Part shown: positions 2,560 through 40,435 of the stretch, one piece after another
How positions within the stretch are numbered: position 1 is the stretch's first letter
Layout: every line of letters begins with the position of its first letter
Assembly: GCA_050014495.1 (NCBI GenBank)
Contig: JBEKDF010000026.1
Span: 1 to 40,435, forward strand
DNA: 40,435 nucleotides
Direction of reading: 5' to 3'
Source of the DNA: Candidatus Bathyarchaeia archaeon
Lineage (GTDB): Archaea > Thermoproteota > Bathyarchaeia > TCS64
Program-made: the position numbers and the translations under genes
The notes under the pieces: generated by a model
What the model was told of the DNA's origin: nothing
The model's input: only the letters and a program-made list of their open reading frames with translations
Databases searched by the model: none

Positions 2560-3798
2560 GTGGGTACAATACGCATACCCTCCGACTTGGAGAAACAGAG
2601 GCGTATAGCCCTAACTATTCTTGCGGCAGTATGCCTGACTTACTTCGTCGAGACCTTTTTACGAAGTGCGGCTTCAGCTCTAACCCCTGTGCTAATCGTG
2701 CAGCTGGGAATCAGCCGTGGCGCGATGGGCCTCCTCATCACTGGATACTTCCTCATTTACGGGATAATGCAGTTCCCTGCTGGGGTCCTCGCTGATGCCC
2801 TCGGACCCAGAAAATCGATACTCTGGTTCACTGCCCTCACATGCATTGGATGTGCACTATTTTGGCTTAGCTACAGGTACGAACTCCTTTTCGCTGCCCA
2901 GGTGATGATGGGTATCGGGACAAGCGTCTTCTACATCAACGCCGTCACTGTGATAATCCGCTGGTTCCCACCCGAGAGGAAGGCTACAGCGATAGGGGTT
3001 TTGAGCGCGGCAAGCGGCGTTGGTGGTTTTACGAGCTATATGGGATTCCCCCTCGCAACCTCCATCTTGGGGGATTGGAGGGCCCTTTACTTCGTGATTC
3101 TTGTGATCCTGGTCGCAAATTGGGGGATAAATATCGTTGTCCTAAAGGACGGGCCCAAACCTATTGCCCCAGTGAGGCGGGAGATGGGGGAAATTGTCAC
3201 CTCCTTCAAGGAGATCCTCGCTGATAAGCGCTTCAGTCCAATGATAATCGCTTATACAATGTTGGGATTCAACTACGTCCTCTTATCCTGGGGTAACCAG
3301 TTCCTTATAGAGTCAAAAGGCCTAACCTACGTCGAGGCAGGACTTGTAACCAGTCTTGGTACAGTCGCGGGCTTCGTTGGTTGCCTCGCCATGGGTGTAA
3401 TCAGCGACAGATTAAGGAAGAGGAAGACTCCCATATTGGCCTTCTTCGGCTTGTTCCTAATAACCCTCTCCGGGCTCGTGTTTATGCCCGCTGGGTACTC
3501 GGTCGCGATCTACGCGGGACTATGGGCTCTTATGTGTGCTGGCAACAGCATTTGGGTGCTCTACTTCAGTATGGTGGGTGAGGTTCTTCCATCTAGGAAG
3601 GTTAGCATCGGCCTCGGGTTACTCAATGGATTGAATCTCATATTCTCCAGCTTGATGACTCCTCTCTACGGGAGCCTGGTTGATCTTACAGGGAGCTTCT
3701 TCATTCCAACCCTGATCAGTATCGGAATAGCAGTGGCTTCTTTGTTAGTTCTACTTGCATATACGAAGGAAACTTATGGCGTCATCATTAATGACTGA
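2560..3798 (+). CDS. MFS transporter
   Basis: About 12 hydrophobic segments; MFS motif A GVLADALGPRK and ISDRLRKRK. Confidence 0.93.
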   Translation: MGTIRIPSDLEKQRRIALTILAAVCLTYFVETFLRSAASALTPVLIVQLGISRGAMGLLITGYFLIYGIMQFPAGVLADALGPRKSILWFTALTCIGCALFWLSYRYELLFAAQVMMGIGTSVFYINAVTVIIRWFPPERKATAIGVLSAASGVGGFTSYMGFPLATSILGDWRALYFVILVILVANWGINIVVLKDGPKPIAPVRREMGEIVTSFKEILADKRFSPMIIAYTMLGFNYVLLSWGNQFLIESKGLTYVEAGLVTSLGTVAGFVGCLAMGVISDRLRKRKTPILAFFGLFLITLSGLVFMPAGYSVAIYAGLWALMCAGNSIWVLYFSMVGEVLPSRKVSIGLGLLNGLNLIFSSLMTPLYGSLVDLTGSFFIPTLISIGIAVASLLVLLAYTKETYGVIIND

Positions 3799-3844: not shown

Positions 3845-5188
3845 ATGTGGACGGTCAACTCAGAGTCGGGCAGGCTCAACGCGGTTCTCATTCAGGATAG
3901 TGTGGAGTCTTTCTGGGAGAAGAGGCTACCCTTTGAGGGCGTTGAGTCCAGCCTTCAGTATCTGCCGCGGTGCGTCCATCCACAGATGGATGGAGGTCAT
4001 GAGCAGTGGCTCCAACTCCCAAAGATTCTGGGGGAGGAGGGCGTGAAGGTCTTCGAGGTCACGGGTATAATTTCGAATGCACTCGAGAAGGCGACGATTA
4101 ATGAGAAGAAGGCAATAATTAATGAGATCTGGGAAGGTTTTCCAGGGGCGCCAAAGCCAGATGAGCTCAAGCTTGAGCATTTAATCTACGGTTACCCTGA
4201 GGCCCCATATTTCGACGTAAAACAGGATAGAGTTGTGCTCCCCGATTTTCGACGCCTTGCCTGGCCCTACAGCAGGGACACGAGCTTCACTTCTCAGGTG
4301 GGAACCGTAATCTGCAATATGCGCCGCTATAGCAGGCGTCATGAAGTACGGGTTGTTAAGCTCGCCTACAAGCTCGACCCTACACTTGCCAAGCACGTTG
4401 AGATCGTATGGGACGCAAACGAGTTAGGTGGCGTAACTACTGAACCGCCAAATGTGGAAGGGGGTGACACCCAGATTGTAGACGGGGAGACTATGGCCAT
4501 AGGGATGGATCAGAGGAGTACACTGACTGGCATTAAGCGATGCGCCGAAGAGCTGTTTAAACATGACAGGGAGGGAAAAATAAAGTATGTATGCGCTGTT
4601 CAGCTCCCTGACTACCCCGCCCTCGACTACATGCACCTTGATGTAACTATAAATTACCCTGATACACGGCGGGCTCTCGTAATGCCATACATCTGGGACT
4701 CAGAGGTCGTCAAAGAGATGCCCCCGAAGAGGCTTCTCCTCAAGACATTAGAGGCGCTCCGGAGGCAGAGCGACGCAGACTACCGCCCTATGGGGCCGAT
4801 GATCCACCCCGAAGGATTCAGGCACAGTGGTAGGACCACGATTTATGTAAACAAAGGGGGCAAACCCGAGATTCTGCGTACGGAGGTGAGCCTCATAGAC
4901 TTCCTTGTCAAGGAGGGTAAACTAGACGCTGACGGGCTTATGTACGTCGGCGGTGAACCGGAGAAAGAGAACGATGTCGGTCACCTCTACTCGGCCTTCC
5001 TCGAGCAGGCTCGAGGCGCGGGAAACATCGTCGCAACGTGCCCAAAGACGGTCATTGCCTATAGGAGGAACAGGAAGACGATTAGTGTGTTGAGAGAGAA
5101 TGGAATAAAGGTCAATGAATGGGACGACAGCTACCTAGACCTTCTCGGTGGGCCCCACTGCAGCACAAGCCCACTAAGCAGGGATTAA
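3845..5188 (+). CDS. Arginine deiminase / amidinotransferase-fold protein
   Basis: Motifs SESGRL, RDTSF, EGGD, MHLD and C-terminal GGPHCSTSPLSRD with the catalytic Cys. Confidence 0.88.
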   Translation: MWTVNSESGRLNAVLIQDSVESFWEKRLPFEGVESSLQYLPRCVHPQMDGGHEQWLQLPKILGEEGVKVFEVTGIISNALEKATINEKKAIINEIWEGFPGAPKPDELKLEHLIYGYPEAPYFDVKQDRVVLPDFRRLAWPYSRDTSFTSQVGTVICNMRRYSRRHEVRVVKLAYKLDPTLAKHVEIVWDANELGGVTTEPPNVEGGDTQIVDGETMAIGMDQRSTLTGIKRCAEELFKHDREGKIKYVCAVQLPDYPALDYMHLDVTINYPDTRRALVMPYIWDSEVVKEMPPKRLLLKTLEALRRQSDADYRPMGPMIHPEGFRHSGRTTIYVNKGGKPEILRTEVSLIDFLVKEGKLDADGLMYVGGEPEKENDVGHLYSAFLEQARGAGNIVATCPKTVIAYRRNRKTISVLRENGIKVNEWDDSYLDLLGGPHCSTSPLSRD

Positions 5189-5189
5189 C

Positions 5190-5765
5190 CTACTTCAACC
5201 CTTTGACGAACCTGATAACTTCGCCATAGAAGGCATCGGGGTTGTCCTCCATCATGGCGTGCCCCGCTCCGGGAATGTAAACGAGGGAAAACTGGTCCAC
5301 CATCTTCTTTTCGCTTGTCCAGAGCCCCTTGTTCTTCTCACCGTAAATTACGAGCACTGGAACTTTGAGAGACTTTAACCTCCCCAGTACATAAGCCCGT
5401 CAGCGTCTAGTTTACCCCCCTTTTTTGAAGCCCGAGTTGACATACTGTTCGTAGGTGAATTTGATGATAACGAGATTACTACCAAAGCAGTCGTTGAAAT
5501 CTATATTTCCCTCAGCGTAGACGATGCCCTTTACCCTTGGACCTAGCATCTCGGCGAGCATCACACAGATGGGTCCATGCTGTGGGGAATGAGGAGGATG
5601 TCACCCCCCACTTCGAGGACATTGATACGCGCACAGTCGTGTATCGGCTGCCAGTAGTCCTTGGAGCCACCGAGGCCATGGATAGGAACTATAGTGAGGG
5701 GATTCACGCCCATGTGGTAAGTAAGAAAGAATGTATTCACCCGACTTGATGGTCTCGCTCTTCAT
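5190..5765 (-). pseudogene. Degraded alpha/beta hydrolase
   Basis: Fragments in different frames: IHGLGGSKDYW, LIPHSM, KGIVYAEGNIDFNDCF, VPVLVIYGEKN...IPGAGHAMMEDNPDAF. Deletions and frameshifts present. Confidence 0.85.
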
Positions 5766-21915: not shown

Positions 21916-22195
21916 ATAGAACTCGACTAACCTGATTTAATCATTAATATGCGCGCGCGCAATCGCGTATATGGTGCACGTTGGATTTTCCGTTAGTTCA
22001 AATCTCACCGCTTAGAGTGCATGCACATTCATTCGCCTAGGAAACATTTAGCGGTCTTGGCATAGCTTTTCACTTACTAGCTTACCTGTTGACTGAAATG
22101 AGCATTAACTTCACTCTTACACAACGCGACTGCATATCAGAAAAACAATTTAACTTTTTTCAAAATTATTAAGTAATCTCCTTGCGAGTCTTGCC

Positions 22196-23440
22196 CTACT
22201 CAAATTTCTTAAAGACCTTGGCGAGTGGAACATGTACAATATCCGAACGGAAATGCTGTGGACCCCACAGCTTAAGGCCCATCGGCGTTTCCCACCTATC
22301 ATCGGTCTTAACTCCAATCACCGCGACTTTTCTGCCGGCTTCCCACTCAGCAGGCCAAAAGTTCTGAAGACCCCAACCTGTTTCCACATCGACAATATTA
22401 ACACCGTCCGGGCTCGTAACATATGGCTTGCCGTCGAGCCATGATAGTTGATTCTCGTTCTTGTACCATATCTTCATATCATGTCCGGCATAGGCGCCAG
22501 TACCCTTAATTTTTGAGACTCCCCATATGAAGCTGAACTTACCCTCCTGCCAGTAGTCAAATATCTCTCCCTCGAACAGTTTGAAGCCGATGGGGCCCAG
22601 TGCTTTTAGCATCGCCTCGACTGGACTCTTCTTAGATTTAACAGCCCCCCGAACCTCCTTACCAACCTTCATAGCAAGGGACTGTGTACCTGGGAAGGCT
22701 GCCTTCTTTAGGTCCGATCCTCTGACAGCGTGTACGCCCCTCGTTGTACCACCAGAGTAGGTTGATATGCCCTCGACTATCTCTTCCATACGCTGGAAAC
22801 ACAGAGTCTCCTCGAGGACCAGCATATCCCCCCACATGGTTGTGAACACAGCTGGCGTGCATGGGACATTCGTTAGGTTCAGACCGTTCTGTGAAATCTC
22901 AGGGGCTGCCCTGTTGCCCGCGACCGTTGCATCAATGAAGGGCTTATCCTTTCTCGCTAAGCTCACCAAGAGCCTGAGGAAGGCAGGGGCGATCTCGAAC
23001 TGTATGTGGGAGTATGGCTCCCCTCCGATGAGTTCTTTGAGTTTTGTGTCTCCTCTCTCATTATAGTCCGGGCTAGGCATCTTCGACCATGTATTGAGTG
23101 GACACCACTCACGGTCGGCCTGCATTATTTGATCCTTGATCCTTGCGGCTTGGTCCACGGAGTAATGGAAATCTCTGGCCAACCTCTGCCTAGGGTTGGC
23201 TGAGAACTTTTCCATCATTTCGGTCTGGATACCACCACCAGTTCCACAGTCGGAGAAAACAATCGCGTCATCGTGGATCTCCTTAAGCTCAACGAATCCA
23301 AGTTTATGGCCCTCATCAAGAACTGGCTGGATTGTCTTATCCACGGTCTCTAGGGAGGGAGCTACCTGGCCTCCGCCGGTTGAAAGAGTCGTGCAACCAA
23401 ACATGTAGTTGAGTACATCTTCCTTACTTAGATACCTCAA
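22196..23440 (-). CDS. DUF917 family protein
   Basis: GCTTLSTGGG N-terminal motif, RAAPEI, WYKNENQ, SPDGVNIVD and C-terminal GPQHF. Confidence 0.8.
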   Translation of the reverse strand: MRYLSKEDVLNYMFGCTTLSTGGGQVAPSLETVDKTIQPVLDEGHKLGFVELKEIHDDAIVFSDCGTGGGIQTEMMEKFSANPRQRLARDFHYSVDQAARIKDQIMQADREWCPLNTWSKMPSPDYNERGDTKLKELIGGEPYSHIQFEIAPAFLRLLVSLARKDKPFIDATVAGNRAAPEISQNGLNLTNVPCTPAVFTTMWGDMLVLEETLCFQRMEEIVEGISTYSGGTTRGVHAVRGSDLKKAAFPGTQSLAMKVGKEVRGAVKSKKSPVEAMLKALGPIGFKLFEGEIFDYWQEGKFSFIWGVSKIKGTGAYAGHDMKIWYKNENQLSWLDGKPYVTSPDGVNIVDVETGWGLQNFWPAEWEAGRKVAVIGVKTDDRWETPMGLKLWGPQHFRSDIVHVPLAKVFKKFE

Positions 23441-23580: not shown

Positions 23581-23763
23581 CGATTAAATATCAAACTAAG
23601 TTATGATAAATTCAAACGCAATAAGTAAACACAAGTTATACAATAGAAGATAGAAGCAGCAAAAACAGTTATTCCGTTAAAACAGTCTTAATATTCACAT
23701 CTTTTATTTTTATATAAAAGAGCCGGGCGATAGAAGTATTCAACCGTTTTAATTTATCATAAA
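23581..23763 (+). repeat. att-like repeat, copy A (partial: 162-bp inverted-repeat-bounded module only)
   Basis: Ungapped hand alignment of 23601-23762 gives 132/162 identity to copy B and 123/162 to copy C. Confidence 0.9.
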
Positions 23764-23916
23764 CGCGCGCGCAGCGGCTAGTGTGACGATTGCGGCTGTC
23801 TATTACATGTTCACGCGCGCACAGTTCCCATCGGGGCGCGGGTGAACCTTCTCCGAATAGTGATATTGATTTAAAACGCCGTGATTGGTAACATAACTTT
23901 GAGAAGGTGAAGATGT

Positions 23917-24132: not shown

Positions 24133-24212
24133 TAGTGGAAAACATGTGGGGGTTCGCTAGTTTTTCTTTTCTCTCAATAGCCTTATCCTCACTTCCACCT
24201 GCTACTCAACCA

Positions 24213-24284
24213 TTACTTGATTGGCTGACCTACCTCCAGTCAGTGTCATACATCGCTGGAGCCTTAGGAGTAACAGTAGCCTCC
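24213..24284 (+). pseudogene. N-terminal remnant of the Bathyarchaeia-expanded 'LQSVSYIAGALGV' (DUF4760-like) membrane-anchored family
   Basis: Translation LLDWLTYLQSVSYIAGALGVTVAS recalled as resembling this family's N-terminus; the rest is missing. Confidence 0.55.
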
Positions 24285-25084: not shown

Positions 25085-25379
25085 TTCTCGTCGTTTCAGC
25101 GTGCGCCCCTTGTGTTTTTGCTATAGCCTCATCCTCGGCTCCATCTTAGTAACTAACCTCTAGAAGTCAGTTATGACCGGCACACAGACGATCGTGAAGG
25201 ACCACAAGTAATAAAATATATTAAAATAAACTATTATTTAACTAACTATCTCACGTTTTCTTACAGATTTGCGCGCGCACTCAAGAAAAACTGGACAAAG
25301 CATTCGAAGAACTCGATACGGGCACATTCATCAAAACCAAAAAGCTAGTAAAACCATATTGATGCATGAGACACGCGCG

Positions 25380-27914: not shown

Positions 27915-27972
27915 CCATTTGATATTATCATAAATACCTAAATATTAGCAATAATTTGCCTAAATATTGCTT
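27915..27972 (+). repeat. att-like repeat, copy D (right inverted-repeat arm plus 11-bp repeats only)
   Basis: TTTGATATTATCATAAATACCTAAA...CTAAATATTGCTT matches 29470-29524. Confidence 0.85.
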
Positions 27973-28337
27973 AAAAACAAATTACATGGGAATTTTAAGA
28001 GATTAAATAAAGTCTTGCCCTCCAAAGTGGAAGTTTTTCTGTTACTGCAAATGCATTTCGATATACAAGGCCCTTTTCGATTGCGGGATGGGCGTGCACG
28101 GGTTTTCCGAGGTGGTGCATTGAGGCTGAGTATCTAAGTGATCGAATCCTTGAGTATGGGAGGGAGCGTCCGGAGGTCCAGATTGTTCCCAACCTTAACA
28201 CAGCCTCAGCGATTTCAAGATCCTGATTCAATAATCTTATCCTCACTTCCACCTGATACTCACCAATGAAAATGATGGCGCCACCCTCAAGTCGCACCCA
28301 TTAAATCTCTGACGCCACCCATACATCCCGATAAGCC

Positions 28338-29195
28338 ATGCCGAAAGCATCCAGACTAGGAGAAATCGCCTCTGACCCAAAGGTTGAGAAGATCCTCAGC
28401 GGATTCCAGTTCACGGAAGGACCTCTCTGGGATGACGGGAGACTTCTCTTCTCAGACATACCCGCAAGCACCATCTACAGCTGGAAGCCCGGTGTCAAGC
28501 ACGCCGAAGTCTACCGGAGACCAAGCGGCCACAGCAACGGGCTCACCCTAGACAGGTGTGGCCGCCTCATAGCCTGCGAGCACGACAGGCGCCTGACCCG
28601 CACCGAGCGGGACGGCACCCTGAAAGTACTCGCCGAAAGCTACGACGGCAGGAGGCTCAACAGCCCTAACGACGTCGTGGTGGCGAGGAACGGTGCCATC
28701 TATTTCACAGACCCACCATACGGCCTCAACGATGAGCTGGAGGGAAAAGAGCTGCCCTATCAGGGAGTCTACAGGCTGGGAGTCCGCGGGAAGCTGACTC
28801 TCTTAGACGACACCTTCGACCGCCCAAACGGCCTCGCCTTCAGCCCAGACGAGTCTAGGCTATATGTAGATGATACGGCGCGGCGTCACATCCGGGTCTT
28901 CGATGTACAGAGAAACGGATCCTTATGTAACGGCATGATCTTCGCGGAGCTTAGGGGTGCTAAGCCGGGAAACCCCGATGGTATGAAGGTCGATGTTCAC
29001 GGCAACGTCTACTGCACTGGCTCCGGTGGCGTCTGGGTAATCAACCCATCCGGTGAGGCGCTCGGCGTCATCGAAACCCCTGAGGTCTCCTCGAACGTCG
29101 CGTGGGGTGACGCTGATTTCAAGACTCTATACATTACTGCGCAGACCAGTGTCTACAGGGTAAGGACAGCGACAGGTGGCCTCCCACTAACCTAA
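28338..29195 (+). CDS. SMP-30/gluconolactonase/LRE family protein
   Basis: Motifs FTEGPLW, LNSPND, YFTDPPYG, PNGLAFSPD and PDGMKVD. Confidence 0.94.
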   Translation: MPKASRLGEIASDPKVEKILSGFQFTEGPLWDDGRLLFSDIPASTIYSWKPGVKHAEVYRRPSGHSNGLTLDRCGRLIACEHDRRLTRTERDGTLKVLAESYDGRRLNSPNDVVVARNGAIYFTDPPYGLNDELEGKELPYQGVYRLGVRGKLTLLDDTFDRPNGLAFSPDESRLYVDDTARRHIRVFDVQRNGSLCNGMIFAELRGAKPGNPDGMKVDVHGNVYCTGSGGVWVINPSGEALGVIETPEVSSNVAWGDADFKTLYITAQTSVYRVRTATGGLPLT

Positions 29196-29238: not shown

Positions 29239-29524
29239 TTACTGTTCGAGAAACAGTCATTTTATCGAGTAGAAGGTGGGTTACGGCCGGTCCACTCGAG
29301 CACGATTTTTACATCGAACTAAGTTATGATAAATTCAAACATGATTTGTAAACGCTGCATATATGATAGAAGATAGAAGCAACGAAAACGGTTATTAAGT
29401 TAAAACAGCCAACGGATTCACATCTTTTAGTTTTAAATAAAAAAGCCGGGCGATAGAAGCATTCAACCGTTTGATATTATCATAAATACCTAAAAATTGC
29501 CTAAAAAATAACTAAATATTGCTT
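29239..29524 (+). repeat. att-like repeat, copy B (full length, with rnpB 3'-end homology at 29271-29290)
   Basis: Hairpin ACTGTT-N5-AACAGT, core AGAAGGTGGGTTACGGCCGG, inverted repeats at 29324 and 29468, 11-bp repeats from 29487. Confidence 0.92.
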
Positions 29525-30014
29525 ATAAATTGCTTATTCGCGCACGCTTGAGCTGCTTATACTATATCCCATCCCATCTGTAGGCCTGTGGCTCCTCGCA
29601 TCCGCTGACGTAGAATCTCCTCAGGGCGGGGGAATGAAGGACTTCAACTTTTTAGGCGAGGGTGCGCTGGTTCACTGATAAAAGAATAGGCACGAACCAC
29701 GAGATGAGGGGGGAGTAAAAGAGGCGCGTGCGCGCGATTATGTAAGAGCTTGGGAGTGCACCTTGACTTTCAGAGATGAAAGATTCCCGAGTGCACCGAA
29801 TCCCCTGAAACCGAGAGAACAGAATTGGCTTCACAGAGTTCAGAGGCTAAAACAATCGTTTTCAAATGTGGGAGCGTAGGCGTGTCTAGACTGAATTTAC
29901 TGTGTTAGCATACTCTATTGGAATCTGGGGAGCCCTTGAGAACTTAGCTAGTTCTTCTGCTCGAGGGTTTGAACCAGAAATATATATTCTACTCCCTTAC
30001 TCAAAACTCTTAGA

Positions 30015-31385
30015 TTGTCGGAAATAGCGTTAATCTATCCATATACGGATCCGCCACGCAACAAATCGATCTTCAGGTTTCCGCCCCTCGGAATAGGCTA
30101 CATATCCGCCCACCTTCGTGATGCAGGGTACAAAAACTCTATTATCGACGCAACATTCATCGGCGAGAAAGAAGCAATCGCGAAGGTCAGGTCGCTTCAT
30201 CTCAGAATAATTGGTATCTACTCGATGTTTACCATGCGGGAAGCCAGCCTCCGATTCGCACGCGCCCTACGAAACGACTGCGACTTACTAGTCGCAGGCG
30301 GCCCACTCCCCACAGTTGAACCAGAATCCTATCTTAACGACTTCGATGTAGCCGCTGTCGGAGAAGGAGAGGAGACAACGCTCGAAATAGCGAGAGGGTT
30401 AAAACTCAGGGAAATAGACGGGCTTGTCTACCGTGAACGAGCTGGAAGGCCCCTGAGGCCTGGAGAGTCTGGTGGTGATGTAATCCACAACTCCCCACGG
30501 CGCGTCCTCAAGAACCTTGATGCGATTCCTCTACCTGCCCGAGACCTCTTTGACAATCAACACTACATAGGCTACTACAAGCAGAGAGGCGAACCCCCTA
30601 CGACGAGTGCAATAACGAGTCGCGGCTGCCCCTTTGCATGCGACTTCTGCAGCCACCCAATCTTCGGCGAGAGTTTCCGCGAGCGCAGTGCAGCAAACAT
30701 GGCTGATGAGGTCGAGCAGGTTCTCTCACTGGGATACGAGCGGGTCTTCTTCCAGGACGATTGCTTCACACTCACAAAGGGAAGAGTTACAAAGTTCTGC
30801 GAAGAGGTTGAGCGCCGAGGTCTTCGGTTTGGCTGGGAGTGCCTCAGCCGGGTAGACAGTATGGATAGAGATACCGCTGCCCGAATGCATGCTGCGGGTT
30901 GTGACCAAGTTTTCTTCGGACTTGAGTCCGGCAGTGAGAGGGTGCTTAAGATAATGAATAAGAGCGCCACCCCCGAGATGGGAAGGAGGGCAGTTGAGGC
31001 TGCCAAGGCTGGTGGTCTGAAAACGGGTGCCTTCTTCATCTTTGGTTACCCTGGCGACGATACTGAGTCGATGCTTGAGACGCTTCACTTCGCCAACAGC
31101 CTACCTTTGGACTACCTCAGTTTCACGTATCCTTACCCGATTCCCGGTACGCCTCTCTATGAGAGGGTTAAGGATAAGATGATGGAGGGGAACCCCGAGC
31201 CCCAGCAGAAGGGGCTCGTTCATCATCAGCTTATCTACTACAGTGAAATCCCGGAGATTAAACTCAAATTCGGTATAATAGAGGGTTTAACCATCCACTA
31301 CCTAAAGCTCCACTTTGGTCGTGTGGCGCCACTCTTAGTTAGACCGTTTAAATTCATAGGTGATGGGGTGTTCAGACGTCTTTAG
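30015..31385 (+). CDS. B12-binding radical SAM protein
   Basis: PPLGIGYI B12-domain start, GEGEET, TSRGCPFACDFC, FQDD, GLESGS. Confidence 0.93.
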   Translation: MSEIALIYPYTDPPRNKSIFRFPPLGIGYISAHLRDAGYKNSIIDATFIGEKEAIAKVRSLHLRIIGIYSMFTMREASLRFARALRNDCDLLVAGGPLPTVEPESYLNDFDVAAVGEGEETTLEIARGLKLREIDGLVYRERAGRPLRPGESGGDVIHNSPRRVLKNLDAIPLPARDLFDNQHYIGYYKQRGEPPTTSAITSRGCPFACDFCSHPIFGESFRERSAANMADEVEQVLSLGYERVFFQDDCFTLTKGRVTKFCEEVERRGLRFGWECLSRVDSMDRDTAARMHAAGCDQVFFGLESGSERVLKIMNKSATPEMGRRAVEAAKAGGLKTGAFFIFGYPGDDTESMLETLHFANSLPLDYLSFTYPYPIPGTPLYERVKDKMMEGNPEPQQKGLVHHQLIYYSEIPEIKLKFGIIEGLTIHYLKLHFGRVAPLLVRPFKFIGDGVFRRL

Positions 31386-31468
31386 ATCGATTATTGAGTA
31401 TATACGCGATCAAGTTTTTAGTATCTTTTGGTCCTTGTATTAGATAAATAATCTTTAGCGCATATAAT

Positions 31469-31774
31469 CTAAATCTCTACTTGAATCTGATCGCCTTCGA
31501 CTCTCACAAGGTAAGATGGCTCTGGCTTAGCTGCCGGACCCTTGTACACTGCTCCGGACTTCAGTTCAAAGGTTGATCCATGGCACACGCATCGAATTCT
31601 CATACCATCTATCGTTCCATCGCTTAACATGCATCCCCTATGCGTGCACTTCCCCCCAATTGCATAGTATTCATTCTCCAAATTAACGAGCAGAACAGGT
31701 TCACCAGCTAGAACTATACCCAGCTTCTCCCCAGGATTAAGGTCGTTGACGGATGCTGCTCTTCTGAACTCCAT
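31469..31774 (-). CDS. Rieske-type [2Fe-2S] ferredoxin
   Basis: CTHRGC...CVCHGSTF motifs and GPA. Confidence 0.93.
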   Translation of the reverse strand: MEFRRAASVNDLNPGEKLGIVLAGEPVLLVNLENEYYAIGGKCTHRGCMLSDGTIDGMRIRCVCHGSTFELKSGAVYKGPAAKPEPSYLVRVEGDQIQVEI

Positions 31775-31837
31775 CTTCTTGACTCCTAATGACTAGTTCA
31801 GTAGTTTGAATAAAAAATATGCGTGCGCTATCTGGCA

Positions 31838-32537
31838 TTAATATCCTGGGAAGATTTCGGTCTTCACTTGTTGTTGGCATCTTCAGATCCATTATCATAA
31901 TGTTGGTTAGATCGTCGACCATCTTCTGTGGGCCAGATATGTAAGTTACTCGGTCCATGAAATCTGGCACGACCCTACGCATCATATCTTCATTGATTCT
32001 CCCCGTTAGGCCGTCCCATTTTCCTTTCGGCTGGGTTATGGTGTAGATGATTTTGATTTGATCATTGTTCTTCTGCATGTCGTCCAGCTCGGCTTTGAAG
32101 GCGATGTCGTCCTCAGAGGTGTTGGAGTAGAGGAGTGTAATATCTGATTTCAGCATCAGATCAGTGCAATATCGCATAATGCTTCGGATCGGTGTAATGC
32201 CGATTCCACCGGTCAGCGCCAGGATCTTGGTGTACTCGCCCACGAAGGTGAAGTCTCCTTCGGGGCCATCAATCTCAACCTTTTCTCCGACTTTCAGGGA
32301 TGCAAGTGCGTTAGCGAACTCGTGGCCTGTGAGCCTTTTAGTCAACTTAAGGTGGGTTAATTCTGTGGGGCTGCTGGAGATTGTGAAGTGTTTCTCTGCT
32401 TTTTGGCCGCTGATTGTTAGTTCAATGTACATGTATTGGCCTGGCAGATAGTTGAATTCCTCTGGTCTGTTGAATCTGAGACTGATATCATTTGGAGTTC
32501 TCTGGATTATCTCCTTGACAACGGCCTCGAACTGCAT
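31838..32537 (-). CDS. FNR-like FAD/NAD(P)-binding oxidoreductase with a C-terminal frameshift
   Basis: Motifs PGQY, HFTISS, GGIGITP and ISGP. The canonical tail QVKTEIFPGY* is in another frame, ending at 31838. Confidence 0.85.
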
Positions 32538-32703
32538 GTCTGCTTCTTTAATTATTCGGGAAGAGTTGATAAAAAGGTTGGTCAGTGGCGCGTGCAAGTG
32601 TATATGTAGTGGGACCTTACAGCCTCACCCTCGCTCCGCTGCAGACGCGCGCACCATAATCAAGGTTTAATACCTATTTTTTCAATGGTAGTAACGTACT
32701 ACT

Positions 32704-34179
32704 TTGACCGGTGAAATCTCATCAAATAAAGGTGATAGAGGTGAGCAGGTTCTACTAGTGTTTCCAGGAAAGTACAATGTTCCAAACCCACAGATTCCCC
32801 TTTCGATACTACACTTGGCTGCTTACCTAAAGAGGAGTGGCTTCGAGGTAAAGATCCATGATATGAGAATTGAGAAGTACAACGACAATCTACTTCGGGA
32901 TCCCCTCTTCGTTGGAATAAGCTCGATGAGTGGCCACCAAATAAGATACGGACTGGATTTCGCTCGGAAAGTTAGGTATGTCGATGCGAAGATACCGATC
33001 GTGTGGGGAGGAGTTCACCCGAGTCTCTTACCGGAGCAAACCATAACAAACGAGTTTGTGGATGTAGTCGTACGCGGAGAAGGTGAGGAGACGATCGTCG
33101 ACCTCGCCAAGAGATTCGCCGCGAACCAACCGCTCGACGATGTAGCCGGTATAACCTACAAGGCTGAAGGAAAGATCAGGAGCAACCCCGATAGATCGCC
33201 AATTAATCTGGACGAGATCCCTGTAGACCTCCCATACGATCTCATCGATACAGAGCGTTATCCCTCAATCAAGTCAGGCCGATTCCACATACAGACGAGC
33301 CGGGGGTGTCCACATAGATGTGGGTTCTGCTACAACACTGTATTCAACAAGAGGAGCTGGAGAAGTAAGAGCCCTGAGAGGGTTCTAAACGAGTTCGAGT
33401 ACGTACTTGACAAGTATCCCCATATTAAATGTCTAGATTTAATCGATGACAACTACTTCGTCGACAAGTCAAGGGTGGAGGCCATTTGCAAGGGGATGCT
33501 TGAACGAGGAATTGACGCCACATGGCGCGCCGACTGCAGGTTTGACTACATGTCGAAATATGAAGAGAGTTTCATTAGACTACTCGAGAAGTCGGGGTGC
33601 ATCGAGCTAAACTTCGGCGCTGAGACAGGTTCGGACCGCCTCCTGGAGTTGATTCATAAGGACGTCACCACTGACATGATGTTCAAATCGGTCGAGAAGC
33701 TGAGGGACTACGCACCCTCCATCGAGCTATACGTATTCTGGATGAGTGGACTCCCCGAGGAAACTGAAAGCGATCTTGAAAAAACCTACGGGGTGATGGA
33801 GAGACTATCGGAGATAAACCGGAAGACGCAGCATGTTGAGATATGCATCTACACCCCCTTTCCCAGCCCGATGCTCACCGAGTTCGCATCAGATTACAAG
33901 CTCCCAACATCACTCGAGGAGTGGGGAGGTGTGGACGTGTTCCACTTCAGGCCCCCATGGCACGAAAAAGGCTACGTAGACAAGCTTGAGGCCATATCCG
34001 CAGTCACGAGGTACACCTTCTATCCCAAGGCCAGGATCAGAGAGATGAAGCAGCCATTTAGAGCCGGGTATAAACTAATGCATAGGGTAGCTAGCTTCAG
34101 GTGGAAACACAAATACTTCAGCTACCCAATGGAGCTGAAGGCCGTCAGCTCCCTATCTCGTAGGCTACGGGGCTACTGA
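32704..34179 (+). CDS. B12-binding radical SAM protein
   Basis: Motifs IPLSILHL, WGGVHPS, GEGEET, TSRGCPHRCGFC, DDNY and GAETGS. Confidence 0.93.
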   Translation: MTGEISSNKGDRGEQVLLVFPGKYNVPNPQIPLSILHLAAYLKRSGFEVKIHDMRIEKYNDNLLRDPLFVGISSMSGHQIRYGLDFARKVRYVDAKIPIVWGGVHPSLLPEQTITNEFVDVVVRGEGEETIVDLAKRFAANQPLDDVAGITYKAEGKIRSNPDRSPINLDEIPVDLPYDLIDTERYPSIKSGRFHIQTSRGCPHRCGFCYNTVFNKRSWRSKSPERVLNEFEYVLDKYPHIKCLDLIDDNYFVDKSRVEAICKGMLERGIDATWRADCRFDYMSKYEESFIRLLEKSGCIELNFGAETGSDRLLELIHKDVTTDMMFKSVEKLRDYAPSIELYVFWMSGLPEETESDLEKTYGVMERLSEINRKTQHVEICIYTPFPSPMLTEFASDYKLPTSLEEWGGVDVFHFRPPWHEKGYVDKLEAISAVTRYTFYPKARIREMKQPFRAGYKLMHRVASFRWKHKYFSYPMELKAVSSLSRRLRGY

Positions 34180-34180
34180 A

Positions 34181-35419
34181 GTGGGTGAAGCTAACAAAGG
34201 TACCACAAGTCACATCTCCAAGATTATAGACGGCAACGTCAATTTCGGCATAAAAATACCGAAGAGGTACCTAGTCTCCATTGCAGCAGTTCTTGTTATG
34301 AAGACTCTTGTGGCCATCATTGTATATTATTTGCTCAACCTCGGAGTCGTGGGAAGCTACTGGATGGACCAGACCAGAGTATTCTCAGGGCCTCAGAATC
34401 TTATCCTCTGGCAGAATCCTTATCACGCATCGAGCGGGGAGTACCTGTTCCTAGGCTGGGACAGCGCCTGGTATCTCAGCATCATCGCGAAGGGCTACTC
34501 CTTCAGCCCACAGAGCATCGCCTTCTTCCCGGGCCTGCCCTCGATCTCAGGCATACTAAACCTGGCTCTAGCTAACCCTGTCTCTTCCCTATTGATCGTC
34601 ACACTGCTATCCGGAGTTGCTTGGGTCCCGTTGTTTCAGGCTATCTCGGAACACTACATGGAAAAGCGCCTCGCCCTGGTATCGACGCTGATCTTTGCCC
34701 TCTCTCCCTTCACCCTCCTCTTCTCCACGGTGGCTTACGCCGAGGGATTGTTCTTACTCCTAAGCCTAGGTTCATGGTGGCTATGTCTCAAGGGTAGATT
34801 TGGCTCCGCCACGATTGTCGCTACAGTCTCCGCTACCACAAGACCGGTGGGACTTCTCCTCGCTTTACCCATTTTCCTCAAAGCGCTGAAAACCAAGCGG
34901 ATCAAACACATTTCCGAGAAACTTTACATCCTTGCTGCGCCTGGCTTAGGCTACCTGTCGGCGTGGGTAAACGGATGGCTCGTCACCGGCAATCTCTATG
35001 CTATCATCATGGTTAACGAATGGGGGACGATGTACAGTTTCTTCACTTTCATCACGAGGCTTCTCCCGGTCTATCTCCTAGGCTCATTCTCTATGATCAC
35101 ACAGTATCTCACTATAAACCCCCTACTACCCTACTTCATCATGCTATTCCTAATCCTGACACCGATCACCATCATCTATTTTATCAGAATCGACAAGGAG
35201 CTGGCGATTTATAGCCTAACATATTACATTGGGATTCTAGTCTTCGGAGCCATATTATCAATTCCACGCTACTTTTCCTTCCTCTTCCCGCTTTGGCTAA
35301 CCCCCAGTATCTCTCGAGCGTTTTCGGGGAAACGAATACTAATCCCTTACTTGATATTATCTGTGGCAATCACGATAATATTATGGCTGAGTTTCCTCAA
35401 CGGGGTCTTCGTTGGATGA
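34181..35419 (+). CDS. GT-C membrane glycosyltransferase (PIG-V/mannosyltransferase-like)
   Basis: Motifs WDSAWYLSII..GY, AFFPGLP, YAEGLFL and TRPVG; multiple TM helices. Confidence 0.87.
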   Translation: MGEANKGTTSHISKIIDGNVNFGIKIPKRYLVSIAAVLVMKTLVAIIVYYLLNLGVVGSYWMDQTRVFSGPQNLILWQNPYHASSGEYLFLGWDSAWYLSIIAKGYSFSPQSIAFFPGLPSISGILNLALANPVSSLLIVTLLSGVAWVPLFQAISEHYMEKRLALVSTLIFALSPFTLLFSTVAYAEGLFLLLSLGSWWLCLKGRFGSATIVATVSATTRPVGLLLALPIFLKALKTKRIKHISEKLYILAAPGLGYLSAWVNGWLVTGNLYAIIMVNEWGTMYSFFTFITRLLPVYLLGSFSMITQYLTINPLLPYFIMLFLILTPITIIYFIRIDKELAIYSLTYYIGILVFGAILSIPRYFSFLFPLWLTPSISRAFSGKRILIPYLILSVAITIILWLSFLNGVFVG

Positions 35420-35510
35420 CTCCAACTCGACGCATGTTGTTCACAATAAGGAAAACGTGACAGCCATAAGCTCGGGATTAAGTATAGGAATTCAACTCTA
35501 AGTAATACAC

Positions 35511-36959
35511 TTGGCTAATCTCGACAAACCTCTGTACGAAGAGTACACTCTTACTCGCTTTAACGAAGCGATAGCTAAGGAAGTAAAAAACAAGTGGGCT
35601 AGGATCTGGGGCATGTTGATTTTCTCGGGATCAACTATGGTCCTGTTCCCAGGGGGACCGAATATAAGAGACTTTGTTGACGCAGCCTTCTTCGCTACGA
35701 AGATTAGTTGGCTAATCCCTTTACCTTTGCTATTCATCCAGAGCATAGGGGTCAATAGGATCCTCACGCCGGGCCTTATGATTGACTCAAGGAAAATCAA
35801 GTACTGCAGGGATGAGTTAGGCACCAAGCGAATAATCTACACTATAACGACTAAGGGTGAGAACCTCACAACTCTATCCGACTCGTTTAACTCCACGGTT
35901 CATTGGATTACCGAGGTGAAGGACAAGTATCACCTTCAATTCACTTCAGAAGTTTGGGTCGTCACGGAGGAGGCTAATTATGAGAAAAACCGAAGTTTTT
36001 ACCGAAGCCTGGAGGAGAAAGGTGGCATAATCGTTGCCACTCCAAGGTCCTACACAACACAAAACAACTCCCACTTTAAGGCTAGGGCGCTCCAATATGC
36101 AGTAAAAACCAGGATTGAACGAGGCATCAACTCCCCAGAGGATTGGGTATACCACCAAGATACCGAAACCATGATCGGTGAGGACACTGTACTCGGTAAC
36201 TTGGACTTCATAAACGAGGCAAGCGATAGTCGCCTGATTGGCTCAGGCATAATACTTTACCCCCAAGATTGGCGGTACCAGTACAACTCGGTGGAGGAGA
36301 CCACAAGATCAGTTGGTGACATCAGCGCTTTAGGGCAGGCAGAGATGTGGGGCGCTGTCCCCTTCGGCTACCACGGCTCCCACTTCATTGTAAGGGCCGA
36401 TGTCGAGAATACAATAGGTTGGGACTTCGGCGATAACCGATCTGAGGATCTCTACTTTTGGTTACAGGTGAGGAAGAAGTATGGGTTGGTCGCTCGCCCT
36501 CTGAAGGGGTTTGCCTACGAGAAACCACCCTTGACATTCACCGATCACCTCAAGCAGAGAAGAAGATGGGTCCTCGGATCGATTGATGTTCTTAAGCGTT
36601 CAGATAATCCCATCAGATTCAGGGCCCCGCTCATCTACGGTCTTCTGTCATGGTTATCCGCTCTCCCCTCCTTAGCGGCTGCCATGCTGAGCCTAATTAG
36701 ACCTACAGGCGGCATTATCGATTATTTGGGGGGATTAATAGCCGGGTTCACCTGGTGGTCGATAATCAGTAACTACTTGGTTGGGTTAGAGATCCACGAG
36801 GTTTATGTCGAAAAAAAGGTGAATTGGAAGCTGTTAAGACTGATTTGGTCGGCGGCTTTAGGAATCCTAGCAGACGCTGTCTCCCCCTGGTATGCATTGA
36901 TCTGGAGAACAAAGGGTTACGATGAGGTTAAGAAGGATACGCGCGTCAACCCGGCTTAG
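35511..36959 (+). CDS. GT2 membrane glycosyltransferase (egghead/BRE-3-like beta-mannosyltransferase type)
   Basis: Motifs FKARALQY, WVYHQDTET, HGS, SED and QRRRW; N- and C-terminal TM segments. Confidence 0.85.
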   Translation: MANLDKPLYEEYTLTRFNEAIAKEVKNKWARIWGMLIFSGSTMVLFPGGPNIRDFVDAAFFATKISWLIPLPLLFIQSIGVNRILTPGLMIDSRKIKYCRDELGTKRIIYTITTKGENLTTLSDSFNSTVHWITEVKDKYHLQFTSEVWVVTEEANYEKNRSFYRSLEEKGGIIVATPRSYTTQNNSHFKARALQYAVKTRIERGINSPEDWVYHQDTETMIGEDTVLGNLDFINEASDSRLIGSGIILYPQDWRYQYNSVEETTRSVGDISALGQAEMWGAVPFGYHGSHFIVRADVENTIGWDFGDNRSEDLYFWLQVRKKYGLVARPLKGFAYEKPPLTFTDHLKQRRRWVLGSIDVLKRSDNPIRFRAPLIYGLLSWLSALPSLAAAMLSLIRPTGGIIDYLGGLIAGFTWWSIISNYLVGLEIHEVYVEKKVNWKLLRLIWSAALGILADAVSPWYALIWRTKGYDEVKKDTRVNPA

Positions 36960-37392
36960 CGAGTACATAGAGTTCAATATAGAGCAGAATGCCGATGGTT
37001 GCTGTCGTTGCCCATAGGATTATTGTTGGCTTCATAAATCTCCTGTTTTTTAGGCATTCGACCAGGGGTTTATTAAGTCTCCATTTCAATGCGAGGTAGT
37101 AGCCTAAGGTTAAGGAGACTGTTCCCAATCCAGCGTGAAGTATTGCAATGATTGAGAGCGGATTAGCGGGGTTAATTGCTATGAAACCCAGTCCTAATAG
37201 GAGTGAGGGCAGCATGATGGTGGCCAGTGATACGGTGTTAAGAGCAACTGCCACCGTCATGTATTTGCCATGTTGTTTGAAGTTCTTCCTTCTCGCTCTG
37301 CTTCTGCCTATTAATAGAAAGCAGAGAATCGCGATTTGAAGGATTAGGTTAATATCGGCTGGTATCCCGGCTGTCGTGCCTAAAAATCCCAT
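36946..37392 (-). CDS. DUF420-like 4-TM membrane protein
   Basis: Four TM helices, HGKYM, ILHAGLG and C-terminal GILLY. Confidence 0.72.
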   Translation of the reverse strand: MGFLGTTAGIPADINLILQIAILCFLLIGRSRARRKNFKQHGKYMTVAVALNTVSLATIMLPSLLLGLGFIAINPANPLSIIAILHAGLGTVSLTLGYYLALKWRLNKPLVECLKNRRFMKPTIILWATTATIGILLYIELYVLAKPG

Positions 37393-37452
37393 TTTATAGT
37401 ATAGTTATGTGATTAATTAATAAAAGTTGAGTGAACCAGCTCTGTGGTTCAT

Positions 37453-37780
37453 TTATGGTGCGGCGCCTTGTCCGCAGAAATATTCTTCAATCATGTTTGT
37501 TGTATTGTCGTAACTTGTATCCTATGAAGTTCTCACATACTGGGCAAGTACATATTTTTGTAAAGTCTAAATCTTTACAAGGTGACGCGCCTTTAGAACA
37601 ATATACTCCTGATAGTGACTTGGGCTCTGGAAGTTTCTTCCTAAGCTCGCTATCTGCGGATGCCTCCTTGATCATTAAACCAGCATCTCTCCCCATTTTC
37701 GAGCAGGGACTATCTAATTGCACCAGACAATTGAAACAGATACACTAGATAACAGTATCGAGGTTGAATGGAACCTTCAT
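37453..37780 (-). pseudogene. DUF2769-like Cys-rich protein, disrupted
   Basis: MKVPFNLDTVI*CICFNC...VYCSKG...CTCPVC. In-frame TAG at 37745-37747, plus a frameshift separating the YFCGQGAA tail. Confidence 0.8.
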
Positions 37781-37886
37781 GATTTTTCAATTATTCTTTG
37801 TGAATGGCGGTTTAAATTACTTAAGGAACCGTTCTCGCCTTGCCGCGTGCACCGTCAGTTTTAAGATTCTTCACCGGTTTTAAATA

Positions 37887-38735
37887 CTAATTAGGGTCTG
37901 TCCTCGGACCAATCTTTACCTTATAGCTGATAGAATCATGTCTCCTAAACGATAACGTCAAGCCTGCCCAGCTGAGCCTCCCCTTCACCCTCTCTCGGCC
38001 ACGCCAAAAACTAGCCCCCAATGGCTTAAGCACAGTGAATGATAGCCCTCCATCGAGAGTCGAGAGCGTAGCCTTCTCCGCATCAACCTTCTCCCAAGCA
38101 CCAATCTCGTTGTCGATAAGTGTAGAACTCAAGTCATCATATCTTCTAAACGTAAGGGCACCCTGCTCATTAAGTAACATCAACTCCTCACATCCTTCGC
38201 TAAGCTCCGTGGAGACATCAATCCCGATCTCATCCTGGCGGACTGAGTAGAGTACACTAACCCGTCCTCTCGATTGGGCGACTATGAAGCTCGTCCTCAC
38301 CCCAACCATGTTCCTGAGCTCCATTATCTTGTCGAAGAAGGGTCTCAGATAATTAAGGGACAGGTAAAGAATACTGAAAATACGGTGTGCAGGATGATAG
38401 ATGGCGTCGCTTATCCTTGATTCGCCGAGGCTTTTTACTGAGACGGTATCCAACTCATATATTTTCTCGATGATTGGATACGGATCGCTTTGGATCATTC
38501 TGAGTGTCGCTGAGCCGGGGAAGAGGGTTTTATCTCTGAATATGGCGATAGGGAGCCCAAAGCCCGCTCCCTCCTCTACGAGCTCCACACCTCCTTTGAC
38601 TAAAATCAAGGCCTTATGTATACCTGCTAACTCCAGGTTCCCTGGCCTCCGATCCGGGTAAATCCTGAGGGCGAATCCATTCGATAAGTCGATGGTTATA
38701 GACTCCGCCGATCTAACGTCACTGTCTCTCGCCAT
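37887..38735 (-). CDS. Hypothetical protein (beta-rich)
   Basis: 282-aa ORF with EEGAGFGLP, NEQGA and GRE...WAGL segments; no function recognised. Confidence 0.8.
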   Translation of the reverse strand: MARDSDVRSAESITIDLSNGFALRIYPDRRPGNLELAGIHKALILVKGGVELVEEGAGFGLPIAIFRDKTLFPGSATLRMIQSDPYPIIEKIYELDTVSVKSLGESRISDAIYHPAHRIFSILYLSLNYLRPFFDKIMELRNMVGVRTSFIVAQSRGRVSVLYSVRQDEIGIDVSTELSEGCEELMLLNEQGALTFRRYDDLSSTLIDNEIGAWEKVDAEKATLSTLDGGLSFTVLKPLGASFWRGRERVKGRLSWAGLTLSFRRHDSISYKVKIGPRTDPN

Positions 38736-38875
38736 CTCTTCACTATGAAGAATCTCATAGCGGTCCGCAATAAAGATGATAGAAGGCGCGCACTCTGAGA
38801 AGCAGAACCCTGAGCTTCGGTGCCGAATTGAGGAATTGACATCTCGCTAGTCTTATGCTTCGTTCCACCATCAAC

Positions 38876-39162
38876 TTACTGTTCGTCAAATAGTCATTTT
38901 ATTTCAGAAGGTGGGTTATGACCAGCTTATCAACAACTGCATTTTTGAGTATAGTACTAAGTTTTGATAGATCTAAACGCAATAAGTAAACGCCGAATAT
39001 GTAAAAGAATATTGAGGCAACTTGAGCGTTTATTACATTAAGACAACCTAAGAATTCATATCTTTTAGTTATGAGTAAAAGAGCCGGGCGATAGAAGCAT
39101 TCACCCGTTTGAATTTATCATAAATACCTAAATGTTACCAATTGTTTACCTAAATATTGCTT
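38876..39162 (+). repeat. att-like repeat, copy C (full length, with rnpB 3'-end homology at 38905-38926)
   Basis: TTACTGTTCG...AGTCATTTTAT, core CAGAAGGTGGGTTATGACCAGC, inverted repeats at 38962 and 39106, 11-bp repeats after 39125. Confidence 0.92.
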
Positions 39163-39240
39163 CTAAGTTGCATCTACGCGTATGGATGAGGCAAGAAAGT
39201 GGTATCTGGTAGATGTAAATAAATGCACGCGCGCATATGC

Positions 39241-39432: not shown

Positions 39433-39505
39433 CGCGCGTGGCTAACGCGCTCACTTGTGATTATACTTTTGAACCAATAAATAGTAGCTACTATCTTGGT
39501 TTGGT

Positions 39506-40435
39506 GTGCCGAATCGCCTCGCATTTCTTCAAACAGTACCGAGGGACGCGAAGATACTAATATTCTCAAACGCGTTCCGAAGCTTCAGCTCCGCCATCCT
39601 CACCGTCGCTTTCCCCATATATCTCAGCAAGATAGGCGTCTCCCCAGTCCTCATCGGGCTAACCTTCATGGGGATCATTCTGTTCTCCGCCATCAGAAGC
39701 CTGATTGAGGGAGTCATCGCTGATCGATTGGGGCGGAAACCCGTCCTCATCTTCATCGCGGGCAGCCTCGTCATCGGAGGCGCCATCTTCGTGGCAACGA
39801 CGAACATCACTATTCTTCTCATCGCCGCAGTCCTATTCACAGTAGGTGGATCAATCACCTACACCCCCGCCGAGATCGCCCTGTTAGGTGACAAGGTAAG
39901 CGATGAGAACCGGACGATGGCATACAGCATCAACGCAACACTTGCGACGGCGGCCAGCATACTCGGCAGCTTCGCTGGAGCCATACCCGAAGCGCTTCAG
40001 AGACTTGGTCTCCCCGAGATTTTAGCTTACCAGCAGATATTCGTGATCTTCGCAGTCGTCGGGGTCATTTGCATCATACTCTTCGCGTTGATCAAAGAGG
40101 TAAAACCGGAGCACATACCAATCGACTTCAGCTCTCCAACGGAGCAGGACATCAGCGAGAGAAAGTTTTTGCTGAAGTGGAGCAGCGTGGTCGCCTTAGA
40201 CGAGATCGGTGGCTCCTTCAACAACCTCCTCAGCTACTGGTTCTACCTCCGCTTCAGGGTGGGTCCCGCTGAGATAGGTCTAATCACTGGACTTGGCAAC
40301 CTTATTTCAACTGTCAGCTATGCCCTCGGTCTGAAGATGGCGAAGCGCTTCGGGACAATCAGAGCGACGGTGATGAGCAGGGTTCCCATCTTCCTCATAA
40401 ACTTCCTAACCCCTTTCATGCCGAGTTTCGCCTTA
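39506..40435 (+). CDS. MFS transporter, partial (runs off the right edge)
   Basis: Open frame from GTG at 39506; GVIADRLGRK motif A and multiple TM segments. Absent from the ORF track because it has no stop in the window. Confidence 0.9.
   Translation, partial: MPNRLAFLQTVPRDAKILIFSNAFRSFSSAILTVAFPIYLSKIGVSPVLIGLTFMGIILFSAIRSLIEGVIADRLGRKPVLIFIAGSLVIGGAIFVATTNITILLIAAVLFTVGGSITYTPAEIALLGDKVSDENRTMAYSINATLATAASILGSFAGAIPEALQRLGLPEILAYQQIFVIFAVVGVICIILFALIKEVKPEHIPIDFSSPTEQDISERKFLLKWSSVVALDEIGGSFNNLLSYWFYLRFRVGPAEIGLITGLGNLISTVSYALGLKMAKRFGTIRATVMSRVPIFLINFLTPFMPSFAL

Follow-up and report, generated by a model that had tools for sequence, protein, structure and literature searches.

Junctions in a Bathyarchaeia contig that link an RNase P RNA gene-end copy to a tRNA-Cys tandem array

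The window studied here is contig JBEKDF010000026.1 of a Candidatus Bathyarchaeia archaeon (assembly GCA_050014495.1), positions 1 to 40,435, and our subject is a pair of elements in it, A (29239-29542) and B (38876-39180), each of which carries a copy of the 3' end of rnpB, the RNase P RNA gene. An earlier note on this DNA had taken the two for element-borne attachment sites (attP) of a family that integrates into rnpB. Our analysis leads to another reading, to which we would give a probability of about 70%: A and B consist of an arm and core of rnpB type joined to an arm-core-arm unit of tRNA-Cys type, and are the joints of stacked blocks devoid of integrase, each joint holding the captured right-hand attachment site (attR) of an older element inserted in rnpB. 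In plainer terms, A and B are likely to be scars that two different families of inserting DNA left where they docked; in many related archaea, one of these families likely inserts at the RNase P RNA gene. What is new here is the fused junction with two targets, rnpB and tRNA-Cys.

The resident rnpB lies at 984-1278 on the minus strand (Rfam RF00373, 187.9 bits) and the target site is its final ~33 bp, 977-1008. That its 3' segment recurs in the window, as the earlier note had seen, is borne out: 29271-29290 is identical at 19/20 positions and 38905-38926 at 20/22, and an 18-nt core pattern allowing up to three mismatches has three hits in the window for 0.05 expected, a number reached in none of 100 shuffles. 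The likeness covers 33 columns and runs past the gene end by 7 nt (84.8%, i.e. 28/33, for A and 79% for B); the portion of rnpB retained in the copies is where the RNA is best conserved at its 3' end. Both cores are located upstream of rnpB in the opposite orientation, and a Pfam scan of the 36 open reading frames (ORFs) of the window found no integrase, exactly as the caveats of that note had it. An additional rnpB 3' copy stands at 25147-25189 (plus strand, same sense as A and B; 81% over 43 nt to C7:527-569, on another contig of this genome); the copy proper is 25160-25189 and its left arm, which we call W, differs from that of A and B. Sites of W type were found behind rnpB in two relatives, G015 and G008. 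Two further rnpB 3' remnants occur elsewhere in this genome (G000:C7:541 and G000:C67:9163), one of W type and the other ending at a (GC)n run. Across the 3' end of the resident rnpB there is also a perfect 9-bp inverted repeat (972-980/1000-1008), seen in this genome only, which could pair against the conserved 3' strand or serve as a terminator.

A aligns to B over 308 columns at 74%, which confirms a unit conserved on both sides of the core and somewhat longer than the ~287 bp first reported. A genome-wide search returned C3:117996-117801, 92.9% identical to A, in which an rnpB-like core is followed, after ~170 bp, by the tRNA-Cys(GCA) gene of this genome. The element is therefore to be read as X - core 1 - Y - core 2 - Z, i.e. 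arm X, core 1 (the 33-nt copy of the rnpB 3' end), arm Y, core 2 (an 11-bp copy of the tRNA-Cys 3' end, on the opposite strand) and arm Z. On the plus strand of A, arm X (29239-29270) is a dyad made of an inverted repeat of 8-12 bp around a variable 7-bp spacer, and corresponds to the left (P) arm of elements inserted in rnpB; core 1, a worn rnpB 3' end plus 7 nt, occupies 29271-29303, and arm Y 29313-29442, with an 18-bp motif at 29324-29341. Core 2 (29443-29453, minus strand) matches the acceptor-stem end of tRNA-Cys(GCA) at 10/11 positions, and arm Z (29454-29542, plus strand) has the 18-bp motif, inverted, at 29468-29485, followed by short direct repeats. B has the same parts on the same strands: X at 38876-38905 (24/30 aligned positions identical to X of A), worn core 1 at 38906-38937, Y at 38951-39080 (95/130), core 2 at 39081-39091 (11/11 to the tRNA-Cys 3' end) and Z at 39092-39180 (71/89). 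Y and Z thus hold the 18-bp motif in inverted sense around core 2, and in the far-end junctions of relatives arm Z starts exactly at core 2. A third copy, C (23590-23763, plus strand, 82% to A over 174 nt), consists of Y, core 2 (23720-23730) and a Z ending at a (GC)n run; it has no core 1, the core-1 score being at shuffle level. D (27915-27977, plus strand, 83-86%) is an isolated piece of arm Z. In A and B the core and its 7 nt of downstream DNA are followed by a (GC)-like joint and then by Y, and (GC)n runs terminate many cut pieces of X, Y, Z and cargo, here and at many related loci. Such runs are seen in the window at 21943-21960, 23764-23773, 25271-25279 and 29537-29543. That X might be an independent dif-like site was considered and rejected, given its variable 7-bp spacer and the recurrence of its outer motif, inverted, behind rnpB.

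The right-hand part of the elements, Y-core 2-Z, has the make-up of an attP-like junction in a tandem array without integrase behind tRNA-Cys, as judged from the forms in which its pieces occur. We aligned 20 core-2 sites from the window, from contig C3, from loci of four genus relatives and from metagenome contigs (found with a core 2-Z pattern; 13 stretches, several of them from the same strain): three are tRNA+Y, 11 are Y-core-Z, five are Z-only far ends, with unrelated DNA where Y would stand, and one is a tRNA without Y. An encoded CCA ends the empty tRNA-Cys genes, is lost in those linked to Y and is kept at the far-end sites. This exchange of partners is what is expected at a recombination core. 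As to the position of the gene, sequence L092 matches the window at 100% identity for 11,353 bp and its last 122 bp are the end of C3 (100%); this bridge places tRNA-Cys ~7.6 kb beyond the right end of the window, in the sense of the array. The order rnpB - purine genes - island - tRNA-Cys - tRNA-Pro is common to G016, G012, G015 and L100/L101, and since rnpB and tRNA-Cys keep the sense that they have in relatives, an origin by simple inversion of the region is ruled out. Arm Y follows tRNA-Cys in this genome (G000), in G011, in G015 (as a remnant) and in L100, and a Y-type arm also stands behind tRNA-Ser(GCT) in G016. The junction forms and the placement of tRNA-Cys thus identify A, B and C as joints in a tandem array behind that gene. 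The array resembles the cis-mobilizable elements (CIMEs) of bacteria in three respects: the core is common to the tRNA 3' end, in the same sense and downstream of the gene; attL, junction, attR and empty forms swap partners at core 2; and the blocks carry no integration or transfer genes in Pfam scans. The attP-like junction in A and B is that of a family which targets tRNA-Cys, not rnpB.

That rnpB is nevertheless an integration target in this lineage, as had been proposed, is supported by two clades of tyrosine integrase that stand directly behind it in relatives. The first, A1, consists of full-length enzymes. It has PF00589 and, in an alignment of 34 homologues, invariant R151, K182, H260, R263, H286 and Y295, which we take to be the catalytic R-K-H-R-H-Y. 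A scan with the protein only returned 27 loci, i.e. 26 once the query's own was dropped: at 18 of these an Rfam rnpB ends 39-143 bp before the integrase match on the same strand, at one rnpB is cut by the contig edge, at one there is a displaced core and at six there is neither; a tRNA gene directly precedes the integrase at none of the 26. Several A1 loci have AACAGTAA after rnpB, which is the reverse complement of the start of X. Complete elements of 2.3 kb, bounded by core-AACAGTAA and by X-core, lie behind rnpB in G074, G080 and G085; their cargo is an MFS transporter and an EVE protein, without integrase (G074 and G080 were scanned). This identifies X as the arm at the far end of rnpB elements. 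X-core sites behind rnpB and in the same sense close elements in six genomes (G063, G032, G074, G080, G082 and G085), which agrees with the expectation that the left arm plus core should be found at the far end of islands. Overall, the core pattern was matched in 31 of 71 genomes of the family, more than once in several of them, and copies in direct sense follow one another from rnpB onward, five in G063 and four in G032; displaced cores occur at 11 of 22 rnpB loci, which is not a frequency as these loci were chosen partly for their multiple hits.

The second clade is split in the manner of the SSV1 integrase. In G009 an integrase frame that begins within the core next to rnpB stays open into the catalytic part, and both displaced cores, 5.6 and 7.0 kb further, are traversed by short frames starting with Met; int(C) is thus behind the target and int(N) at the far end. 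This split integrase has 11 matches at E<=1e-40 in the 71 genomes: the best three (100, 73 and 49%) follow rnpB and the other eight (33-37%) are at tRNA genes; in a quick tree the split clade behind rnpB (G009, G013, G085) forms one starred branch apart from its tRNA-linked relatives. The 5.6-kb rnpB element of G009 (L090:1600-7250) holds, besides the split integrase, a 427-aa ATPase-like frame and a restriction-like protein. At two A1 far ends (L121:9212 and L134:9661) a short frame starting with Met also runs through the rnpB core; by eye, the frame of this type behind rnpB seems to stop on the integrase start, so that insertion may split a small leader gene. In L120 two full rnpB matches stand face to face (176-473 and 2861-3161) with an A1 integrase after each, which may be an inverted duplication or an assembly artefact. 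X-core remnants are met outside rnpB as well: 8 bp behind tRNA-Leu(GAG), behind tRNA-Ala(GGC) (L006/L007:1501, L023:1501) and in a tRNA-Leu(TAA) island (L067:8112), and that island has cargo in common with 30015-36959 of the window.

The cargo genes point to a likely transfer from the rnpB island to the tRNA-Cys island. The gene abutting X of A, at 28338-29195 on the plus strand, encodes an SMP-30/gluconolactonase (Pfam) with orthologues behind rnpB in G012 and G015 (86.7 and 79.8% amino-acid identity); in G015 the likeness at the DNA level extends to 10 bp or less from X. In G012 and G008 the gene has remnants of the core after it. To the left of C is an S-Me-THD-like gene (22196-23440, minus strand, Pfam), which adjoins the gluconolactonase gene in G012 and G008 and is found behind rnpB in G012, G035 and G026. 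G012 has both orthologues behind rnpB with order and core-relative sense unchanged. The cargo left of A being located behind rnpB in relatives, it is likely that pieces of the rnpB island were transferred to the tRNA-Cys island. Orthologues of the gene left of B are listed for 6 of 17 genus relatives. The fusion itself seems not to have occurred only once. Out of 16 Y copies collected, 14 could be anchored, and nine of these have a core 1 far above shuffles at the same distance from Y; the copies with core 1 do not form one clade (p-AU 0.004, Y tree of 134 columns). One pair of copies agrees at 132/150 nt as far as core 1 extends but at no more than 89/150 in Y, which places the joining of the block to two Y lineages beyond the core, at the (GC) joint. 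Of 10 core-1 copies, five have an X truncated at a (GC)n run. Within core 1, non-CpG mismatches amount to 6/104 in the left 13 nt and 15/64 in the right part (eight copies, two near-duplicates having been dropped; as the copies are related, the p value overstates the difference). CpG cells were changed in 14/32 cases, but CpG decay as the sole cause of the left-right difference is ruled out: it contributes, and the difference persists without CpG sites.

From these data three steps may be proposed. First, a tyrosine integrase acting in trans would recombine the Z-core 2-Y of a circle with the last 9-11 bp of tRNA-Cys, as the pattern of junctions suggests, and each new block would displace the older ones, leaving Z-core 2-Y between neighbours. 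Second, to judge by their position in relatives, the full-length A1 and the split SSV1-type clades would place elements within the final ~33 bp of rnpB, those of A1 type being bounded by AACAGTAA on the gene side and by its reverse complement, the start of X, on the far side. Third, pieces of the neighbouring rnpB island ending in X-core 1 would have become fused to the outer end of Y through deletions that left (GC)n scars; this would have happened at least twice independently, the products being afterwards carried and multiplied by the tRNA-Cys system. What A and B keep of rnpB is therefore, most probably, an attR carried along as a passenger and not a working attP.

Several observations do not fit easily with this scheme. 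A passive passenger accounts neither for the fixed distance between core 1 and Y in 9 of 14 copies, which fall on either side of the Y tree, nor for the better preservation of the left 13 nt of core 1 relative to its right part; the tree itself was built on 134 columns; and this genome has no match to the A1 family at E<=1e-60. Furthermore, no integrase was found beside Y or Z in any search of ORFs, PF00589 loci or serine recombinases, and because of this the enzyme of the tRNA-Cys step is only assumed. The genome has 13 PF00589 matches, none on this contig; 65 ORFs of related arrays and rnpB islands (the longer ones of 133 called) gave no recombinase; 29 PF00589 loci in 10 genus relatives, whose genomes are incomplete, all lack the Y and Z arms; and no serine recombinase was found in five genomes. 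Of the linked integrase gene that the earlier note hoped for, there is thus none in the window or on the contig, and just one full-length integrase (390 aa; L025:306-1475, minus strand) is located next to an X-core site, 25 bp away, in L025. Matches to Z outside the genus are weak (E 4e-4 or worse), and viral contigs gave neither a match to three DNA patterns nor an A1 relative. Contigs from eight public runs that cover the right half of the window, assembled at low depth, have an even depth across A and B and show no excision or inversion joint at either core, which is no evidence either way as such assemblies drop rare forms; the loose contig ends at 29258 correspond to the C3 copy.

Another possibility, which we hold to be unlikely, is that X-core 1-Y-core 2-Z is kept as a working unit, an rnpB integrase using core 1 and a tRNA-Cys integrase core 2, with cargo swapped between the two hotspots. 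The fixed spacing in 9 of the 14 scored Y copies, across lineages that are 60-90% alike, would then make sense, as would the better conservation of the left half of core 1 and of the X dyad with respect to Y, and the presence of the same cargo genes at both hotspots; moreover, the orientation of the core, opposite to rnpB, would be expected to yield an inversion rather than a lethal deletion. But the rnpB-Y product that this scheme predicts is seen at none of 53 distinct rnpB ends (nine are followed by the right-arm motif of rnpB elements; the context counts are rule-based calls that missed some worn cores), the sole swap that could be mapped lies past the core and not within it, X is truncated in half of the core-1 copies as said above, and the right half of core 1, needed to restore rnpB, is the decayed one. 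There is thus rather little chance that we are dealing with a docking module of two addresses, i.e. one 300-bp junction with working sites for two unrelated integrases, one for RNase P RNA and one for tRNA-Cys. If it were true, metabolic blocks without integrase would be shuttled, stacked or inverted between two neighbouring RNA-gene hotspots whenever a visitor supplies the enzyme, a cargo exchange like that of integrons without resident integrase. True integrons are not at hand: the array has no integrase, and both rnpB integrases score far under the TIGR02249 cut-off.

The view of the earlier note, that A and B are plain attP sites of the rnpB-targeting family with Y as right arm, now appears very improbable. 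It is true that the core is the rnpB 3' end, that X is a genuine left arm and that the flanks are conserved between A and B. However, the abutment of the right arm on intact rnpB genes, which was to be its proof, is contradicted by the count of rnpB ends just given: Y follows tRNA-Cys or, in G016, tRNA-Ser, and never rnpB. Elements at rnpB have another motif as their right arm, one that accompanies none of six detected Y-linked cores and is absent behind the cores of A and B; among 15 X-core sites three are followed by Y and one by that motif; and five of the 14 Y copies have no core 1. On these comparisons X-core in A and B reads as an attR-type end of an rnpB element fused to the arm of another system, not as an attP. 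We give scarcely any credit to a non-autonomous transposon, a miniature inverted-repeat transposable element (MITE) that would have acquired RNA-gene fragments and whose ends would be the 18-bp inverted repeat: the two repeats are 160 bp apart and copy C covers exactly this unit, but the unit is divided at core 2 into tRNA+Y and Z-only forms, homology extends well beyond the repeat, which is therefore internal, no target duplication is present beside it in A, B or C, and copies occur only in tRNA islands. That the rnpB copies act as small regulatory RNAs or decoys on RNase P RNA is hardly credible either, in spite of the conservation of the stretch retained, as they always come with recombination arms and at island ends, no promoters or terminators were identified, and an explanation at the DNA level suffices.

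Site-specific insertion at the ends of tRNA and tmRNA genes is textbook knowledge. We found no paper naming RNase P RNA as an integration target, and large island databases and supplements may hold cases. The term 'RNase P' does not occur in the main texts of PMC8371274, PMC6563490, PMC11705971, PMC12884075, PMC13626063 and 10.64898/2026.08.12.739948; PMC8776855 has one mention of rnpB. In PMC13626063, non-coding RNA genes are 13.5% of the RNA targets and go unnamed in the main-text passages; its supplements may bear on rnpB. The review PMC8371274 on archaeal tyrosine integrases, classical and SSV1-type 'suicidal', lists tRNA genes, protein genes and intergenic sites as targets and describes features met again here, namely insertion at 3' ends with restoration of the gene, split int(N)/int(C), tandem arrays and target switching among related enzymes; the difference is that one split and one full-length clade are both at rnpB. 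A stable RNA gene other than tRNA as attB is exemplified by prophage phiEf11, with its 27-nt core in ffs, the 4.5S SRP RNA gene (PMC12540744), but this is a bacterial phage with another RNA and without arrays or two-target junctions. The CIMEs at tRNA 3' ends, as presented in the review PMC5704250, share with our array the blocks without integrase, the retained att sites, the stacking at one tRNA end and the chimeric junctions; here, however, the host is archaeal, a helper element or integrase was not found, and the junctions also carry the att end of a second family with another target. Finally, the tycheposon islands of Prochlorococcus (bioRxiv 10.1101/2020.12.28.424599) are likewise anchored at tRNA genes, with repeated integration, partial target copies, decayed elements and metabolic cargo, but the present blocks have neither a replication nor an integrase module, one of the targets is RNase P RNA and there are long arms on both sides of an 11-bp core.

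What the locus adds is the presence of two distinct integrase clades at rnpB, an arm motif for one of the two and complete 2.3-kb elements without integrase, together with direct evidence of att ends and cargo moving between an rnpB island and a tRNA-Cys island. Being single-copy, essential and conserved, rnpB with its matched integrases could provide the genetics of Bathyarchaeia-like archaea with a landing pad, and studies of target change in integrase systems have a ready substrate in the fused junction.

Other features of the window may be recorded briefly. Immediately upstream of rnpB is a reductive-dehalogenase-like Fe-S gene (1315-2391, minus strand), retained in relatives. Segments 425-516 and 1-198 contain 12-nt repeats in a proline-rich frame and a repeat common to contigs C3, C7 and C16, and C39 overlaps the first 122 bp of the window. 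Two arms of a 48-nt inverted repeat (88%; 4910-4957 and 5375-5422) are 417 nt apart, one of them within an arginine-deiminase-like gene. On the minus strand, 20178-20277 matches Rfam PYLIS_3 at 46.5 bits inside an MttB-family gene that has no in-frame stop. A family of short repeats, resembling MITEs or transposon ends, is found at 24170-24280, 28100-28270 and 32594-32639 and has dozens of copies in the genome, often several on one small contig. At the right end, the MFS gene at 39467-40431 is 87% identical to C18:50473-51437.

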